64,000 nt of DNA from an uncultured Clostridia bacterium (GCA_944350015.1 CALVNW010000004.1:8750-72749), one strand, 5' to 3'. Counted from the stretch's first letter, positions 176 through 48,809 are shown. Notes: a model not told the origin generated them from the letters alone. A program made the numbers and translations.

Positions 176-254
176 TAAAATATTGGCGGTGTGAGTTGTT
201 TTTTATGTAGGTGGTAAGCAAAATGAAAAGGGTGGTGAGTTTGTTCGGCTATTT

Positions 255-342
255 GCGGAAGAGAAAAATTTTTAAGTCCCTTAAAAATTTTTGTTTGTCA
301 TAAGATGACAAACTGCAAGCTTAAAAAGCTTGCCTCTTCCGC
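255..342 (+). repeat. four-way-junction palindromic element, copy A
   Basis: Outer stem GCGGAAGAG / CTCTTCCGC encloses three perfect hairpins. They are AAAAATTTTTAAG-TCC-CTTAAAAATTTTT, TTTGTCAT-AAG-ATGACAAA and GCAAGCTT-AAA-AAGCTTGC. Confidence 0.8.
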
Positions 343-411
343 AAACCTCTTCGAACCACTATATTGCACGTTCAAACTTTATTGATAAGGATTAATTAAA
401 AATATTATCAG

Positions 412-438
412 ATAAGCCAAAAGACTGGCTTATTTTTT
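412..438 (+). terminator. intrinsic terminator-like hairpin
   Basis: ATAAGCCA-aaagac-TGGCTTAT followed by a T run. Confidence 0.55.
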
Positions 439-508
439 ATGAATAATTTTAAACAATAAAAACAAAATAATAAAAAGTGATTAAAAGTCAGATTAATAGG
501 AGATAATT

Positions 509-14147: not shown

Positions 14148-14260
14148 TTATCCCCATTTTAGCTGGGAAGTTATCCACAATTTGATAAAACATCGAAAGT
14201 TATCCACATTTTAGTTAGGAAGTTATCCACAATTTATTAAAACATCAAAAGTTATCCACA
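14148..14260 (+). promoter_or_regulatory. array of five same-orientation DnaA boxes
   Basis: TTATCCCCA at 14148. Perfect TTATCCACA at 14171, 14200, 14223 and 14252. Spacing is 23/29/23/29 nt, i.e. a 52 nt unit duplicated. Confidence 0.75.
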
Positions 14261-14280: not shown

Positions 14281-14520
14281 AAAACCCGTACAAAACCTAG
14301 GAAAACCTAACAAAACCTAACCATAACCTAAAGAAACCTAACAAAACCTAACCATAACCTAAAGAAACCTAACAAAACCTAACCATAACCCAACAAAACC
14401 CAACGAAACCCAACCATAACCGAACAAAACCCAACAAAACCTAACTGTAACTGATACTGATACTGTAACCAATACTGTAACTGATACTATTACTGCTAAT
14501 GGTACTGTAAATGATAGACA
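14281..14520. repeat. iteron-like tandem repeats (10-11 nt AAACCTAAC-type units in a 32 nt super-repeat, then ACTGTA/ACTGAT hexamer repeats)
   Basis: AACCTAACAAAACCTAACCATAACCTAAAGA occurs about 3 times and degenerates to AACCCAAC units. It is followed by ACTGTAACTGATACTGATACTGTAACCAATACTGTAACTGATACT. No ORF is present. Confidence 0.8.
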
Positions 14521-17634: not shown

Positions 17635-17845
17635 AATGTCGCCACAATTTAATGATAATAAATTTGACTATCGAGGCTGAAGTTTGTTGATAGAACGCTT
17701 AGTGATGATAGAAGATAATTTATTAATAAATAGTGTGAGATTGATTTATTAAGAAATAATTTAAATAGTAAGGGGTTTCTTAGTAAATTGTATAAAACTG
17801 ATTTATCAGCAAATTTGTTAAAGAGCTTTATAGCAAACCCTAGGT

Positions 17846-17943
17846 GGCGAGAAAACAAAATTTTTAACACGTTAAAAATTTTCGTTTTGCAAAAGGGCTT
17901 TTGCAAAACGGCGCAAAAAAGTTTTTTGCGCGGTTTTCTCGCC
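17846..17943 (+). repeat. four-way-junction palindromic element, copy B
   Basis: Outer stem GGCGAGAAAAC / GTTTTCTCGCC encloses three hairpins. They are AAAATTTTTAAC-AC-GTTAAAAATTTT, GTTTTGCAAAAG-GG-CTTTTGCAAAAC and GCGCAAAAAA-G-TTTTTTGCGC. Confidence 0.8.
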
Positions 17944-17973
17944 ATAACTGACACAAGGCGGTTATTTATAGGT

Positions 17974-18011
17974 AAAAAAATAGGACTTAATAATAAAAAA
18001 GTCCTATTTTT
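17974..18011. terminator. bidirectional terminator hairpin (groEL / SDR convergent pair)
   Basis: A7-ATAGGACT-12 nt loop-AGTCCTAT-T5. Confidence 0.6.
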
Positions 18012-18139
18012 ATATAAATTAAAACAATTTTTTCATAAATATTTGTTAAAAATAATTTAATTTACAAATTTTTATTGAAATTTATTTAATTATTAATCTT
18101 TTTATCAGAATTTATAAATTTTATTTATTAACTTCAACC

Positions 18140-19521: not shown

Positions 19522-19628
19522 TAATTTCAAACTTTTAAATAAGTTATTATAATGTTTTTATAGACTTGAGAAAATTATGATTTTTTGATTTAATATATCA
19601 TAAACAAATTAAATTATAATAATTTATC

Positions 19629-19715
19629 AAAAAATAAACTAAATTAATTTGATTTTTAAAAAATAAACTAAATTAATTTGATTTTTAAAAAATAAACTAA
19701 ATTATTTTAATTTAT
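19629..19715. repeat. tandem 29 nt AT-rich repeat (about 2.6 copies) within a larger repeat-rich spacer (19560-19920)
   Basis: AAAAAATAAACTAAATTAATTTGATTTTT x2 plus a partial copy. The core TAAACTAAATTA recurs at about 19793 and as TAGACTAAATTA at about 19774. AAATTATTATTAATTTATCAAAAAA recurs twice. Confidence 0.75.
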
Positions 19716-19922
19716 AGCAAAATTATTATTAATTTATCAAAAAAATAATTAAATTGCTAAATTTTATCGAAAAATAGACTAAATTATTATAAAATAAACT
19801 AAATTAATTTATTTTATAACCAAATTATTATTAATTTATCAAAAAATAATAAAATTACAATAATTTTACTAAAAATTATTGTAAAAAATATCTAAATTAT
19901 CTCAATAATTAAAGAAAGCACC

Positions 19923-20375
19923 TTAAACGCTCGGAAGGTGCTTTCTTTTACTTTTGAAAAAGTCGGTTAGTAGCCTTTGACATTCTTTGTTTTCAATAAA
20001 TTCTATTTGCGTCTTGTGATTTAAGCGATTGCTTTGCAGAATTTGCCTAAAAAGGTCATCCTCACTTGTTGTCTGACGGCAACAATAATATACCTTTCTT
20101 ATTCTAGCATTGACGATTGCGCCAGCGCACATAGGACAAGGTTCAAGGGTAACAAAAATATCACACCCGTCAAGTCTCCACGATTTAAGCTTTTTGCAAG
20201 CTTTATTTATTGCCTCAATCTCGGCGTGTCTTAAGGCGTTCTGGCTTTTTTCTCTTCTGTTATGACCTTTTGCAATCACCTTGCCATCTTTAACGATAAC
20301 CGCACCTATTGGCACCTCGTCTTTTTTGAGCGCCTTTCGCGCCTCAGATAACGCCATCTCAATAAATTCATCCAT
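19923..20375 (-). CDS. tadA: tRNA-specific adenosine deaminase
   Basis: HAEIEAI and PCPMCAGA zinc-binding motifs. 150 aa. Confidence 0.9.
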   Translation of the reverse strand: MDEFIEMALSEARKALKKDEVPIGAVIVKDGKVIAKGHNRREKSQNALRHAEIEAINKACKKLKSWRLDGCDIFVTLEPCPMCAGAIVNARIRKVYYCCRQTTSEDDLFRQILQSNRLNHKTQIEFIENKECQRLLTDFFKSKRKHLPSV

Positions 20376-23245: not shown

Positions 23246-23323
23246 TTTGACTAAAGTATAATTGATATGTATTTGTCAATGTATCTGTTGTTTTTATGTG
23301 ATAAATATGGAGTTTTTCGGGGC

Positions 23324-23426
23324 GGGCGAGAAAGTAAAATTTTAAACGCGTTTAAAATTTTGTTTTTGCAAAAACTATGGTTTTTGCAAAAACGCTCAAG
23401 CGTAAGCTTGAGCCACTTTCTCGCCC
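23324..23426 (+). repeat. four-way-junction palindromic element, copy C
   Basis: Outer stem GGGCGAGAAAGT / ACTTTCTCGCCC encloses three hairpins. They are AAAATTTTAAACG|CGTTTAAAATTTT, GTTTTTGCAAAAAC-TATG-GTTTTTGCAAAAAC and GCTCAAGC-GTAA-GCTTGAGC. Confidence 0.8.
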
Positions 23427-23520
23427 TCGCCAAATTCAAACTTCATATTTTTATTTTAAATAGGACTTAACAAGTCTTAAACATAAAACAAGAGCTTTAG
23501 TTATAGGAAAGTATTGAATT

Positions 23521-23604: not shown

Positions 23605-23690
23605 TTTATCACCTCAACAGAAAAACTTGCATATATTATTGACTATGTGATGTAAAAATTTTATTGTCATAAAATTTTTTAAATTCTAAC

Positions 23691-23769
23691 GAATTTGTAT
23701 GCTTGCGCATACCCATCACATAGTATGAAAACCCCTCAGCCTCACCCTTGCAAGCAAGTTCGGCTTCCG
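23691..23769 (-). repeat. shared 3'-flank module (terminator-like), copy 1
   Basis: The reverse complement starts CGGAAGCCGAACTTGCTTGCAAGGGTGAGGCTGAG. Those 35 nt are identical to 48652-48686. The module contains a CTTG-CTTG-CAAG hairpin inside an AGCC/GGCT stem, then a U run and a second hairpin GTATGC-GCAA-GCATAC. Confidence 0.7.
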
Positions 23770-23779
23770 ACAATATTCA

Positions 23780-30492: not shown

Positions 30493-31017
30493 ATGAAAAA
30501 ACCAGTTTATATTAGATGTCCTAGATGTGAACTTAACTATATTCAAAAAAAGGATAAGTTCTGCCCAGTATGCAAGGCTGAAATGGAAGCTAAGAGGGAC
30601 TATGTTGACGATATTGATTTAGAGCTTTGCCCAATTTGCAAAACTAACTATATCCAGCCAGACGAGATTATGTGTGCAAGCTGTTTGAAAGAGCATCAAA
30701 ACGAGGATGGCGAGCTTAGCTCAGATTGGGAAGACTATATCATCAGAGATGACCAAGACGATATTATGACCCTTGATGACGAAACCGGTGATATGGCGTC
30801 TGTCAATGACATCACAAAATCTACACTTCTTGACGATGATGATATCTCTCCAGATATTGACTTTGACGATGACGATGGCGATATCTCGTTTGACGATGAA
30901 GAGTTTGATGATGACGACGATGATGACGATGACGATGACGACGATGATATCGACGATATAGACGATGATGACATCGATGATGACGATTATGACTACGACG
31001 ATGACGATGATGACTAA
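30493..31017 (+). CDS. double zinc-ribbon protein with an extremely acidic poly-Asp tail
   Basis: CPRC-x15-CPVC and CPIC-x15-CASC, followed by about 100 aa rich in D/E. The last roughly 60 aa are almost entirely Asp. Confidence 0.6.
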   Translation: MKKPVYIRCPRCELNYIQKKDKFCPVCKAEMEAKRDYVDDIDLELCPICKTNYIQPDEIMCASCLKEHQNEDGELSSDWEDYIIRDDQDDIMTLDDETGDMASVNDITKSTLLDDDDISPDIDFDDDDGDISFDDEEFDDDDDDDDDDDDDDIDDIDDDDIDDDDYDYDDDDDD

Positions 31018-35069: not shown

Positions 35070-35591
35070 ATGAAAAGACAAAAATATCAGATTAAGCAAA
35101 GATGTTTCAATTTAAAATGCGCAAAAATGCAAGGCAATATCATAAAAAATCAAAAATTCACGATGCGTATAATGTCGAAAGATAAGAAAAAGAAGGGCAA
35201 GAACAAAAAATCTTCAAACTTCGACAAAAAGTTCTCCAAAAAGCAAATTTTCTTATTACTGCTAAGCGGTGGCGTAATAGGCTTTTTGAACGGATTTTTT
35301 GGTGGCGGAGGTGGGATGGTGTGCGTGCCGTTGCTATCAAAGGTGTTAAAGCTTGACGCAAAGCGTTCTCACGCAACAGCAATTGCCGTTATCTTTCCGC
35401 TAAGCTTAATTTCGGCATTTATCTATGTGATAAACGGCTATATCAGCTCGCTCCCTCTTTTAACTGTCGGGCTTGGCGTGATTGCAGGCGGGCTTATTGG
35501 TGCGTATGCGCTAAAGATTTTGCCACCTAAAGCCGTCAGACTAATCTTTGCAATAATTATGTTTGTAGGGGGGATAAAGCTAATCATATGA
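35070..35591 (+). CDS. TauE/SafE-family half-size membrane protein (first of a pair)
   Basis: GFLNGFFGGGGGMVCVPLL motif and four TM segments. A Lys-rich N-terminus is present. The real start is probably downstream (ATG 35163 or 35172). Confidence 0.6.
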   Translation: MKRQKYQIKQRCFNLKCAKMQGNIIKNQKFTMRIMSKDKKKKGKNKKSSNFDKKFSKKQIFLLLLSGGVIGFLNGFFGGGGGMVCVPLLSKVLKLDAKRSHATAIAVIFPLSLISAFIYVINGYISSLPLLTVGLGVIAGGLIGAYALKILPPKAVRLIFAIIMFVGGIKLII

Positions 35592-35962
35592 ACATCTATT
35601 TGACTATCTTTCTATATGTGGCGTTTGGGGTAATCTCAGGCATTTTTGGCGGGCTGGGTATGGGTGGCGGGACACTTTTAATACCACTTCTTACCATCTT
35701 TTTAGGCTTTGACCAAAAGCTGAGCCAAGGGATAAATTTGGTATCCTTTGTAGTTATGGCAATCTTTGCCCTTCTTGTCCATTACAAGAACGGCTACATT
35801 CAAACAAGAGGCATCATTTACATCATCATAAGTGGTGTAATTTTTTCGGTTTTAGGGGCGCTACTTGCGGGATTTTTGCCAAGCGACTATCTCAGAATGG
35901 CGTTTGGGGTGTTTTTATGCCTATTATCTATAGTACAAGTTATAAAAGTAATCAAAAAATAG
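35588..35962 (+). CDS. TauE/SafE-family half-size membrane protein (second of a pair)
   Basis: ATGA overlap with the preceding gene. ISGIFGGLGMGGGTLLIPLL motif and four TM segments. Confidence 0.65.
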   Translation: MNIYLTIFLYVAFGVISGIFGGLGMGGGTLLIPLLTIFLGFDQKLSQGINLVSFVVMAIFALLVHYKNGYIQTRGIIYIIISGVIFSVLGALLAGFLPSDYLRMAFGVFLCLLSIVQVIKVIKK

Positions 35963-47548: not shown

Positions 47549-47934
47549 CCCAATCCAAAGGGCTCAGCACACTCGCTACTTTTTGACATATTCAGTTTAT
47601 TATATGTAGACACGGCTTGTCCGTGTGAATAAAAATCAAAATTAATTAAGGAGCAGTCAAAATTGACAAGTGATAAGGCTGAAAAGTTTGTGACAAGCAA
47701 ACTTTGAGTGGCTACAACAGATATACTGTTCACCATAAACCCCCTAAGTGATAAATAAAGTTTTTCAATGTTTAATATATTGTCTCAAATTAAATAGGTT
47801 ATATCTTCATTAAACAACTTTATTATATAATATAAAAAAGGGTTTGTCAACTGATTTTTAATAACTTTTTAATTAATTTACAAAACACACTAAATCATAA
47901 AAATAAATTTTTTTGTATAAATATGCAAAAACGC

Positions 47935-47963
47935 TTGCATATTAATTGTGGAATGGTTATAAT
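47935..47963 (+). promoter_or_regulatory. sigma-A-type promoter candidate
   Basis: TTGCAT, a 17 nt spacer, then TATAAT. Confidence 0.5.
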
Positions 47964-47994
47964 AAAACTAATAAGATTGACAAAGGAGAAAATT

Positions 47995-48639
47995 ATGCAA
48001 GAAGGTTTTATCGAGGATTTGCAAAAAGGATTGTTGCTTTCAAATTCAATCGGGCAAGAAGAGGCGCTCGATATTTATGATGCGCTTGTAAAAAAGTATA
48101 AAAAAGTAAGAAGTTCATCCCTTGGTAAAAAGGCAGAAGAAGGCGAGAGTGAGGAGTTTAAGAAAGTTATCAAATCATTACCAAAGTACGCAAAATACTA
48201 TGATATAGATAGTTTTGACGTTTGTCTTAACGAGTATAAAAACAGCTTACCTAGAGAGATAAAGCTTGACGAAAAGGATTTGAAGGGCAGTATTGCCTCT
48301 CTTGCCGAAACTGTGATTAGTGCGCAGGCAAGCATAGGTAAATTTAGTAGAAATTCTGGTGTCAATATTGCTAATGACAAGACCAATTACACAAACAGCG
48401 TAGTTGATTTTGAAACGGCAAGCAACCCTCAGTTTGTCGAAAGTCTCATTGCAAAGGTTGGCTCGTCAAACCCTGAAGTTGTTGCTCAGTGCAAGAAGAG
48501 ATGTGACGATTTATGCAAAAGCCTTGCTGAAAGCGCGATAGAGGATAAGACAAGCTATTACGATAGATATGTAGATTACCTTGTTGACTTTTATTCAGAT
48601 AACGAGATAGCAAGACAGGGTGAACCTCAGATGGCGTAG
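47995..48639 (+). CDS. hypothetical protein (predicted all-helical, soluble)
   Basis: The start is set at MQEGFIEDL by RBS AAAGGAGaaaattATG; the ORF track starts at 47923. No motif recognised. Confidence 0.5.
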   Translation: MQEGFIEDLQKGLLLSNSIGQEEALDIYDALVKKYKKVRSSSLGKKAEEGESEEFKKVIKSLPKYAKYYDIDSFDVCLNEYKNSLPREIKLDEKDLKGSIASLAETVISAQASIGKFSRNSGVNIANDKTNYTNSVVDFETASNPQFVESLIAKVGSSNPEVVAQCKKRCDDLCKSLAESAIEDKTSYYDRYVDYLVDFYSDNEIARQGEPQMA

Positions 48640-48651
48640 GTGTTTTATTAC

Positions 48652-48728
48652 CGGAAGCCGAACTTGCTTGCAAGGGTGAGGCTGAGTTTTTTTGCTATGT
48701 AATGGATGAGCAAAGCATATAAATTTGT
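48652..48728 (+). repeat. shared 3'-flank module (terminator-like), copy 2
   Basis: CGGAAGCCGAACTTGCTTGCAAGGGTGAGGCTGAG followed by T7. The first 35 nt are identical to the reverse complement of 23735-23769, and the next roughly 40 nt are similar. Confidence 0.7.
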
Positions 48729-48809
48729 CAAAATTTTATTGTCGCATAGTCACTAATATATGTATATATCTATAAATAAAAGATTTTTATAAAAATAATG
48801 CAAAAATGC

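Follow-up and report, generated by a model that had tools for sequence, protein, structure and literature searches.

Nested cloverleaf palindromes form a small intergenic repeat family in uncultured Clostridia

Introduction

The spacer that follows rlmH in an uncultured Clostridia bacterium contains a sequence in which almost every base can be paired, an outer stem closing around three back-to-back hairpins to give a cloverleaf-like four-way junction. Two further sequences of this form, one after acpS and one after groEL, had been noticed together with it. The question raised by this locus is whether such a structure acts as an RNA, is recognised as DNA, or is a repeat whose arms are kept complementary by the way in which it is replicated.

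We analysed the window, that is the whole stretch of 64 kb in which these sequences lie, together with related loci from other contigs and species, which are given here by their L numbers. All window coordinates refer to its + strand. The three elements are called copies A, B and C, elements of their type F1, and a sister family F2.

Architecture of copies A, B and C

Copy C is built exactly as the original prediction described it, both by inspection of the sequence and by folding. Its 12-bp outer stem, GGGCGAGAAAGT paired with ACTTTCTCGCCC on the + strand, surrounds three abutting hairpins (H1, H2 and H3). H1 is a perfect 13+13 palindrome with zero spacer, H2 has a stem of 14 bp and the loop TATG, H3 has a stem of 8 bp and the loop GTAA, and the C at 23414 is the single unpaired base. 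The same layout, a 12-bp stem around three abutting hairpins, is found in copies A and B (Table 1). The consensus GCG.GAAA that had been given for the outer stem holds for B and C and fails for copy A, which reads GCGGAAGAG; the two strands of its outer stem are TTTGCGGAAGAG and CTCTTCCGCAAA.

The flanking genes had been named correctly, groEL and rlmH being identified by Pfam and acpS by its full-length orthologue in L123. Copy B lies 210 nt after the groEL stop codon and copy C 78 nt after that of rlmH, and copy A lies between the acpS stop codon (173-175) and a terminator-like hairpin. Separate terminator hairpins do follow copies A and B, as had been proposed. The one 3' of copy B is situated between the convergent groEL and SDR genes and is conserved in strains. 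The 30 ORFs scanned in the window are housekeeping genes, and GC skew suggests that the + strand is the leading strand throughout. Small ORFs that span the elements (for example 23267-23470) were set aside as by-products. An independent RNA gene was also considered and rejected, as inspection by eye, strain variants included, found no consistent promoter upstream of the elements.

A MazF/PemK-type toxin gene (732-1079) is located just downstream of copy A and acpS. A small ORF (509-772) overlaps it from upstream and likely encodes the antitoxin, the pair occupying region 509-1079.

It is highly improbable that the elements are complex terminators or attenuators, possibly bidirectional, acting between neighbouring genes. 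In a consensus scan, H3 of copy B with GGTTTTCTCG after it is picked up on the + strand; on the - strand the scan picks up H3 of copy C and H2 of copy B, each with T-rich sequence behind it. A T run comes directly after the outer stem in L141 6891-6980 and in copy C of L128. The hairpins flagged in the window are internal ones, however, and the statement that the element is not itself a canonical terminator stands, there being no T run after the outer stem of A, B or C. Most copies have no adjoining U tract and canonical terminators are separate after A and B. In addition, one copy in a relative lies inside a pgk-tpiA spacer and another between a promoter and its gene, positions in which termination would be harmful.

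Table 1. Cloverleaf elements and associated terminator hairpins of the window
Feature	Position	Strand	Parts	Basis
Copy A cloverleaf	252-345	+	outer stem 252-263 / 334-345; H1 264-292; H2 293-313; H3 315-333	sequence, folds, scanner, covariance model (51 bits)
Intrinsic-terminator-like hairpin downstream of copy A	412-439	+	ATAAGCCA...TGGCTTAT, then T run	read from sequence
Copy B cloverleaf	17845-17944	+	outer stem 17845-17856 / 17933-17944; H1 17857-17882; H2 17883-17910; H3 17911-17931	sequence, folds, scanner, covariance model (105 bits)
Terminator hairpin downstream of copy B	17980-18012	.	A run before, ATAGGACTT...AAGTCCTAT, T run after	read from sequence
Copy C cloverleaf	23324-23426	+	outer stem 23324-23335 / 23415-23426; H1 23336-23361; H2 23362-23393; H3 23394-23413	sequence, RNA and DNA folds, scanner, covariance model (103 bits)
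F2 insertion, 133 bp	23641-23773	+	cloverleaf 23642-23724; conserved 49-nt tail 23725-23773; TATT direct repeats 23637-23640 and 23774-23777	scanner, folds, empty site in conspecific L128
Decayed F2 copy	48640-48760	+		BLAST of L123 9-70 to 48646-48704; sequence; fold z +0.9

Folding, chance and known RNA families

The four-way junction is the minimum-energy RNA fold of copies A, B and C on both strands, with energies of -45.7 to -56.9 kcal/mol (z -7.3 to -11.5), and no shuffled sequence folded as well (0/200). With DNA parameters the z scores of the three copies are -8.8 to -12.8. When folding was slid along the whole 64 kb, the five lowest-energy 120-nt windows all fell on copies A, B and C. 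A scanner that required an outer stem of at least 6 bp and three abutting perfect hairpins matched the window at four sites; in five shuffles it matched nothing. Copy C is a confirmed, non-random element. The fourth site is a cloverleaf with a different outer stem which had been overlooked by the original prediction; it belongs to F2.

The elements could not be assigned to any named RNA family, in agreement with the earlier statement to that effect. At the gathering threshold Rfam reported only a tRNA, tRNA-Trp in the window and a tRNA in six related loci, and gave no match for the elements in either. A relaxed search (E up to 10) over copy C and F2 gave best scores of less than 20 bits against thresholds of at least 39, which is noise. 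ARAGORN found only the tRNA-Trp (1194-1267) in the window. A tRNA has canonical arm lengths, whereas the arms of these elements are 6-14 bp long and are joined without variable or junction bases.

Anatomy of the family

Members of the family are nested palindromes of 80-105 bp in which an inverted repeat of 9-13 bp surrounds three abutting hairpins, with 0-2 nt of unpaired junction sequence in nearly every copy. Every copy has three inner hairpins except one, an F2 copy in L137 that is without hairpin 1. In most copies GC content rises from hairpin to hairpin (H1 0-15%, H2 19-43%, H3 40-75%).

Similarity between loci is confined to H1, with its AAAATTTT core, and to the 5' strand of the outer stem, which is rich in purines; H2 and H3 drift. 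The outer strand GCGAGAAAG is common to the window species, L122, L124 and L137; it is GCTCGGAAA or GCTTGGAAA in L141 and L145, and CTTGGAAGT in L162. The flanks of F1 elements are not conserved: blastn-short with all upstream and downstream flanks found no match beyond orthology. A resemblance between the spacers upstream of copies A and C (GTTGTTTTT(T)ATGT and GAGTTT.TTCGG) was under the threshold of this search and was dropped.

Distribution in related genomes

A pattern made of the outer stem and hairpin 1 had only five matches in 185,579 species genomes, and these are in three MAGs titled 'uncultured Clostridia bacterium'. Three of the five are orthologues of A, B and C in a MAG that is 90-98% identical to the window, and the other two are single copies in the more distant MAGs L122 and L124. 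A metagenome scan, with a pattern of the outer stem, the start of H1 and the 3' outer strand, returned only orthologues of B, C and the L124 element, plus one chance match (L155). Among viral contigs the F1 pattern had no matches and the F2 tail pattern had four, all of them chance matches in GC-rich coding DNA; BLAST against plasmids with copy C and F2 gave no match. The hairpin-1 pattern alone (AAAATTTT.AA...TT.AAAATTTT) was rejected as unspecific, since more than 120 viral contigs match it and none of these has the junction structure.

The syntenic loci of relatives were fetched through RlmH homologues of 95, 79, 73, 70, 68 and 63% identity. All conspecific contigs examined carry copies B and C. 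Copy C is also kept at the same site in the 79% species (L137-L140), abutting the rlmH stop codon. The 73% and 70% species have no elements at the B and C sites; their cloverleaves occupy other positions, among them the region 3' of a SHOCT-like gene and the leader of the gene that follows greA. In one 68% species an element (L150 5104-5196) follows groEL, and another species at 68%, whose spacers are very short, has none at the fetched loci. One 63% species has a weaker copy (L162). F1-type elements thus occur at different loci in species of 63-73% RlmH identity.

A covariance model built from the B and C variants recovers the copies of the relatives and finds nothing further in the window. 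Beyond A, B and C, the analysis as a whole brought out the fourth cloverleaf of the window and about ten loci in related uncultured Clostridia. All copies had been placed on the + strand, which is true within the window and is not a rule of the family. The copy in L122 lies in the pgk-tpiA spacer in the opposite orientation, and those of L141 and L145, which are flipped relative to each other at the same locus, lie in a 5' UTR, with a good promoter on one side and the start of the next gene on the other. On the evidence of the pattern scans and of the survey of syntenic loci, the family is apparently confined to one Clostridia clade, where it is low-copy and turns over between species.

A separate observation concerns L141 1-440, where a strong promoter-like site (TTGACG, a 15-nt spacer, TATACT) precedes a GC-rich, repeat-containing leader. 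The leader, which matches no Rfam family, contains a cloverleaf (95-187) and is followed by a 38-aa ORF.

Pairing and mode of sequence change

A MAFFT alignment of all copies misaligns H2 and H3, and pair statistics were therefore taken from a five-sequence alignment and from folds of the individual elements. The individual folds of 26 elements contain 685 A-T, 333 G-C and six G-T pairs, so that 6 of 1,024 predicted pairs are G-T. Natural RNA helices usually carry several percent G-U. In the five-sequence alignment (A7), which holds variants of B and C, 98.6% of cells pair. Of its 43 pairs, nine differ at both positions and none at a single position; controls with slid partners gave 0-1. The view that the differences between copies are compensatory and leave the arms complementary is upheld by these two-sided changes.

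The changes can be followed among close relatives. Among strains, a C-G pair of H1 in copy B has become T-A; in H3 of copy B a G-C pair has become A-T and one A-T pair has been lost from both arms. H2 of copy B shows a swap of G-C to C-G in L128, the same position being a G-G mismatch in L127. In the 79% species (L137), H2 of copy C is without a T and its partner A, and H3 has gained A-T pairs in both arms. Mismatches also occur, one example being a one-sided change in H2 of copy C in L136.

Loops and interiors are found in both orientations. The window has AAG as the H2 loop of copy A and L123 has CTT, the orthologues being otherwise identical. In copy B, strains have AGT or ACT as the loop of H3 and TTCA or TGAA as the loop of H1. 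In L141 11937-12026 and L145 11916-12010, which occupy the same site downstream of greA, it is the whole interior that is inverted between the two.

Through template switching, a single replication event gives rise to perfect stems, to compensation at several bases or to the inversion of a loop (PMC8794818). The pattern described here fits what would be the signature of DNA hairpins kept perfect by this process. We infer template switching from pairing that is Watson-Crick only, from swaps that are unable to pass through G-U, from symmetric insertions and deletions, and from flip-flop.

An alternative is that the elements are a functional structured RNA of untranslated regions, serving to stabilise the mRNA, to mark it for processing (for example by a double-strand-specific RNase) or to dock an RNA-binding protein. 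Lying past the stop codon and ahead of the terminator of groEL, acpS and rlmH, they should be co-transcribed, and they are kept at orthologous sites in strains and in one sister species. Pairing is maintained across many two-sided changes, and the sequence of the outer stem and H1 is conserved between loci. RNA-level selection could mimic the two-sided changes; it would not produce the scarcity of G-U or the flips. The absence of one-sided pairs from alignment A7 also argues against a selected RNA, and the flips alter every loop and, where the interior is inverted, reverse the order of hairpins in the RNA. Pure pairing together with flips does not sit easily with an RNA in which the loops or the order of the hairpins are important. 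Elements occur in both orientations relative to genes and also in 5' UTRs, close genera have the same UTRs without the element, and Rfam has no match. We consider such an RNA unlikely.

The sister family F2

The fourth cloverleaf of the window is part of a longer element in the 3' UTR of a minus-strand DUF378 gene. Its outer stem is ACTATGTGATG / CATCACATAGT, its H1 contains only A and T and is followed by H2 and H3, and a conserved, structured tail (CTCAGCCTCAC...GTTCGGCTTCCGA) completes it. The element is flanked by direct repeats of TATT, a 4-bp duplication. Conspecific L128 has the empty site with exact junctions and a 4-bp overlap, and the sister species L137 is also without F2 at this site. 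F2 is a demonstrably inserted element. The two ends of the insertion are not inverted repeats of each other.

Other F2 copies were found at different loci in L123 (two, in this conspecific contig) and in L137 and L138 of the 79% species. By inspection they are flanked by AT-rich direct repeats of 4-5 bp, and their tails are about 95% identical. In six of six cases the sense strand of the flanking genes reads first the reverse complement of the tail and then the cloverleaf. The two paralogues of L123 differ by a compensated change of T-A to C-G. The L137 copy (1600-1720) is precisely without hairpin 1 when compared with L138 9086-9172, which would be a case of one palindrome having been cut cleanly out of the cloverleaf. 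A short contig, L001, breaks off within F2, as is expected because F2 is a repeat.

A decayed F2 copy is also present in the window. Directly after the stop codon of the gene at 47923-48639 its tail is intact, as the reverse complement, with a T run behind it; its cloverleaf is degenerate and no longer folds.

No flanking repeats, target duplication, empty site or autonomous partner were found for F1 copies, and B and C are in all conspecific contigs; the F1 copies may themselves be mobile.

Possible partner enzymes

The original prediction favoured a REP/BIME-like DNA or RNA hairpin module over a classical ligand-binding RNA, possibly one that is a target of a RAYT or IS200/IS605 enzyme. A DNA hairpin module agrees with the near absence of G-T pairs and with the flips of loops and interiors. 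A target of a RAYT or IS200/IS605 enzyme finds no support, as none of the defining features (tag, copy number, Y1 transposase in the window) was found. Among 26 elements searched on both strands for the GTAG/CGTC tag, one GTAG was found, in a hairpin loop of L141 6891-6980, and no CGTC. The window holds three F1 copies in 64 kb, to which the pattern adds one site each in two other MAGs. No transposase or recombinase, Y1_Tnp included, is among the 30 window ORFs scanned, and no candidate enzyme gene lies beside any copy in about 0.6 Mb examined. An IS200-like Y1_Tnp pseudogene is present in the conspecific contig L163 (19692-20102), about 9 kb beyond the window end. A link to it was rejected, the gene being broken and the hairpins at the ends of the element being unrelated to the cloverleaves.

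In L163 18440-20300, about 8-10 kb past the end of the window, there is a tRNA gene whose 3' end is repeated twice more, in units of about 190 bp, and the IS200-like element comes after these. Its Y1 transposase is split by a stop into 19692-19841 and 19890-20102.

More generally, the cloverleaf may be a recognition structure for a DNA enzyme or protein (a REP/RAYT-like or other single-stranded DNA transposase, a recombinase, or a binder of cruciforms or junctions) that reads the outer stem and H1, the element being maintained together with this partner. The outer-stem signature is shared within a species group and differs between groups (GCGAGAAAG; GCTCGGAAA or GCTTGGAAA; CTTGGAAGT), and all conserved features are invariant to inversion, as is expected if DNA is being read. 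F2 inserts without terminal inverted repeats, and a Y1_Tnp gene does exist in the species. Against this stand the missing tags, the low copy number, the lack of a candidate gene beside the copies or of a transposase in the window, and the pseudogene state and different end hairpins of the IS200-like element. We regard a partner of this kind as quite unlikely.

A more speculative form of recognition joins the two families. The cloverleaf would be the cis recognition structure of undescribed small mobile elements that lack terminal inverted repeats, its four-way junction being bound by an enzyme in single-stranded or supercoiled DNA, with flip-flop like that of a parvoviral terminal repeat. F2 would then be active and F1 its older, immobilised relatives. 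This also seems to us rather doubtful.

Nature and origin of the elements

The element family is real and previously uncatalogued, a small intergenic palindromic repeat, and it is not evidence for a new functional RNA. We give about an even chance to the reading in which copy C is a lineage-restricted, nested-palindrome intergenic repeat of the REP/BOX/MITE kind, made of selfish or neutral DNA. Such elements would sit in the transcribed spacers of one uncultured Clostridia clade, mostly between stop codon and terminator. DNA hairpins formed during replication would act as templates for their own repair by intrastrand template switching, so that the arms stay complementary; the same process would give the two-sided substitutions, the symmetric indels and the flip-flop of loops or of the whole interior. 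New copies would arise rarely and by insertion, for which F2 is the direct case. Once transcribed, an element would be a very stable four-way junction in the UTR, and its most plausible effect on the host may be to hinder 3'-to-5' exonucleases in a generic way, as other repeats of this sort are reported to do, or there may be none. Both strands fold equally well and H1 of copy C is a palindrome without a spacer, which supports this reading.

Several observations speak against a selfish or neutral repeat. Copies B and C are fixed, and C persists at 79% RlmH identity, which could reflect selection. The copies are few and diverged, unlike the bursts that are typical of MITE and REP sequences, and none of the traces of insertion seen for F2 was found for the F1 copies. 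The outer stem and H1 are kept across loci and species while H2 and H3 drift, which suggests that something recognises them. The three hairpins and, in most copies, their AT-to-GC order look constrained. The rival explanations are kept alive by this fixation, by the conservation of the outer stem and H1, by the constancy of the three hairpins and by their composition.

If a repeat shaped by template switching is the correct reading, the family is an unusually clean natural case in which DNA structure, and not RNA function, drives 'compensatory' evolution. Four nested helices stay perfect, and intermediates and both orientations are visible among close strains. It would be a caution that covariation alone is no proof of a functional RNA, and a test bed for template switching and cruciform biology in bacteria. 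The perfect four-way junction is a new architecture for small bacterial repeats and comes with an inserted sister element. The elements also break short-read assemblies, as in L001, and may serve as strain markers in this uncultured lineage.

Other features of the window

Four perfect DnaA boxes (TTATCCACA) and one near-perfect box are found at 14148-14260, all on the + strand and 23 or 29 nt apart. They are followed at 14290-14445 by a tandem array of period 10 or 31 (ACAAAACCTA...), boxes and array lying in the spacer between a peptidase M1 gene and a minus-strand ORF. The cluster is not an obvious origin, since GC skew keeps its sign there.

Long AT-rich tandem arrays fill two intergenic spacers, 2015-2466 (periods 21-67) and 19591-19876 (periods 29-102), and the content of these spacers differs among close strains. 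Two adjacent and overlapping half-size TauE/SafE genes are found at 35070-35962, the first corresponding to the C-terminal half and the second to the N-terminal half of the Pfam model. A repeat of the (GATGATGAC)n type at 30864-31016 lies at the 3' end of the ORF at 30493-31017 and encodes an acidic, Asp-rich tail.

Comparison with known systems

The REP, BIME and REPIN sequences of Proteobacteria are short extragenic palindromes found mostly in 3' UTRs, as are the elements described here; hairpins that are possible in single-stranded DNA, genome-specific signatures and proposed effects on mRNA decay are likewise common to both (PMC3333891, PMC3116915, PMC3733652). A REP is a single imperfect hairpin or a doublet, whereas here four helices are nested in one junction. 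REP sequences number tens to hundreds and carry the GTAG/CGTC tag, and here there are few, diverged copies and no tag. They also flank a RAYT Y1 gene in Proteobacteria; in the Clostridia host none was found in the regions examined. Membership of the REP/RAYT class fails on tag and copy number.

BOX elements of Streptococcus (boxA-boxB-boxC), with RUP and SPRITE, are composite intergenic repeats of low-GC Gram-positive hosts (PMC3049150), and are compared here by description. Their end modules pair together and the internal module folds alone, they are co-transcribed with neighbouring genes, and they insert slowly (PMC3049150), in all of which they resemble the present elements. BOX modules are about 45-60 nt long and the number of boxB modules varies, whereas here the three hairpins are short, near-perfect and constant in number with one copy excepted. 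Copies of BOX are similar in sequence and there are hundreds per genome; here copy number is low and identity is limited to the outer stem and H1.

MITEs such as Correia, ERIC and Nezha are AT-rich, about 100-150 bp long and highly base-paired (PMC3049150), as are the cloverleaves. The terminal inverted repeats of MITEs (PMC3049150) are matched by the outer stem, which in F1 is a perfect 9-13 bp repeat at the ends, and their target duplication and presence/absence variation are matched by F2, with its TATT repeats and the empty site in L128. The ends of F2 do not match each other, one being the cloverleaf and the other an unrelated tail. F1 shows neither a duplication nor a recent insertion, and the searches of plasmids and viral contigs brought out no parent insertion sequence. 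The likeness to a MITE is partial and lies mainly with F2.

The inverted terminal repeats of parvoviruses (AAV) and hairpin telomeres also consist of an outer stem around small palindromes, and their interiors occur as flip and flop, which are reverse complements. Repeats of the AAV type are the ends of linear replicons, form three-way (T-shaped) junctions and flip through terminal resolution by the Rep nickase. The present elements occupy internal chromosomal sites and have three inner hairpins, and the likeness appears to be one of form only.

The hairpins attributed to template switching are the product of a mutational process inferred in RNA genes and not a family of elements (PMC8794818). 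Here the same process would act on a nested set of four helices located in spacers.
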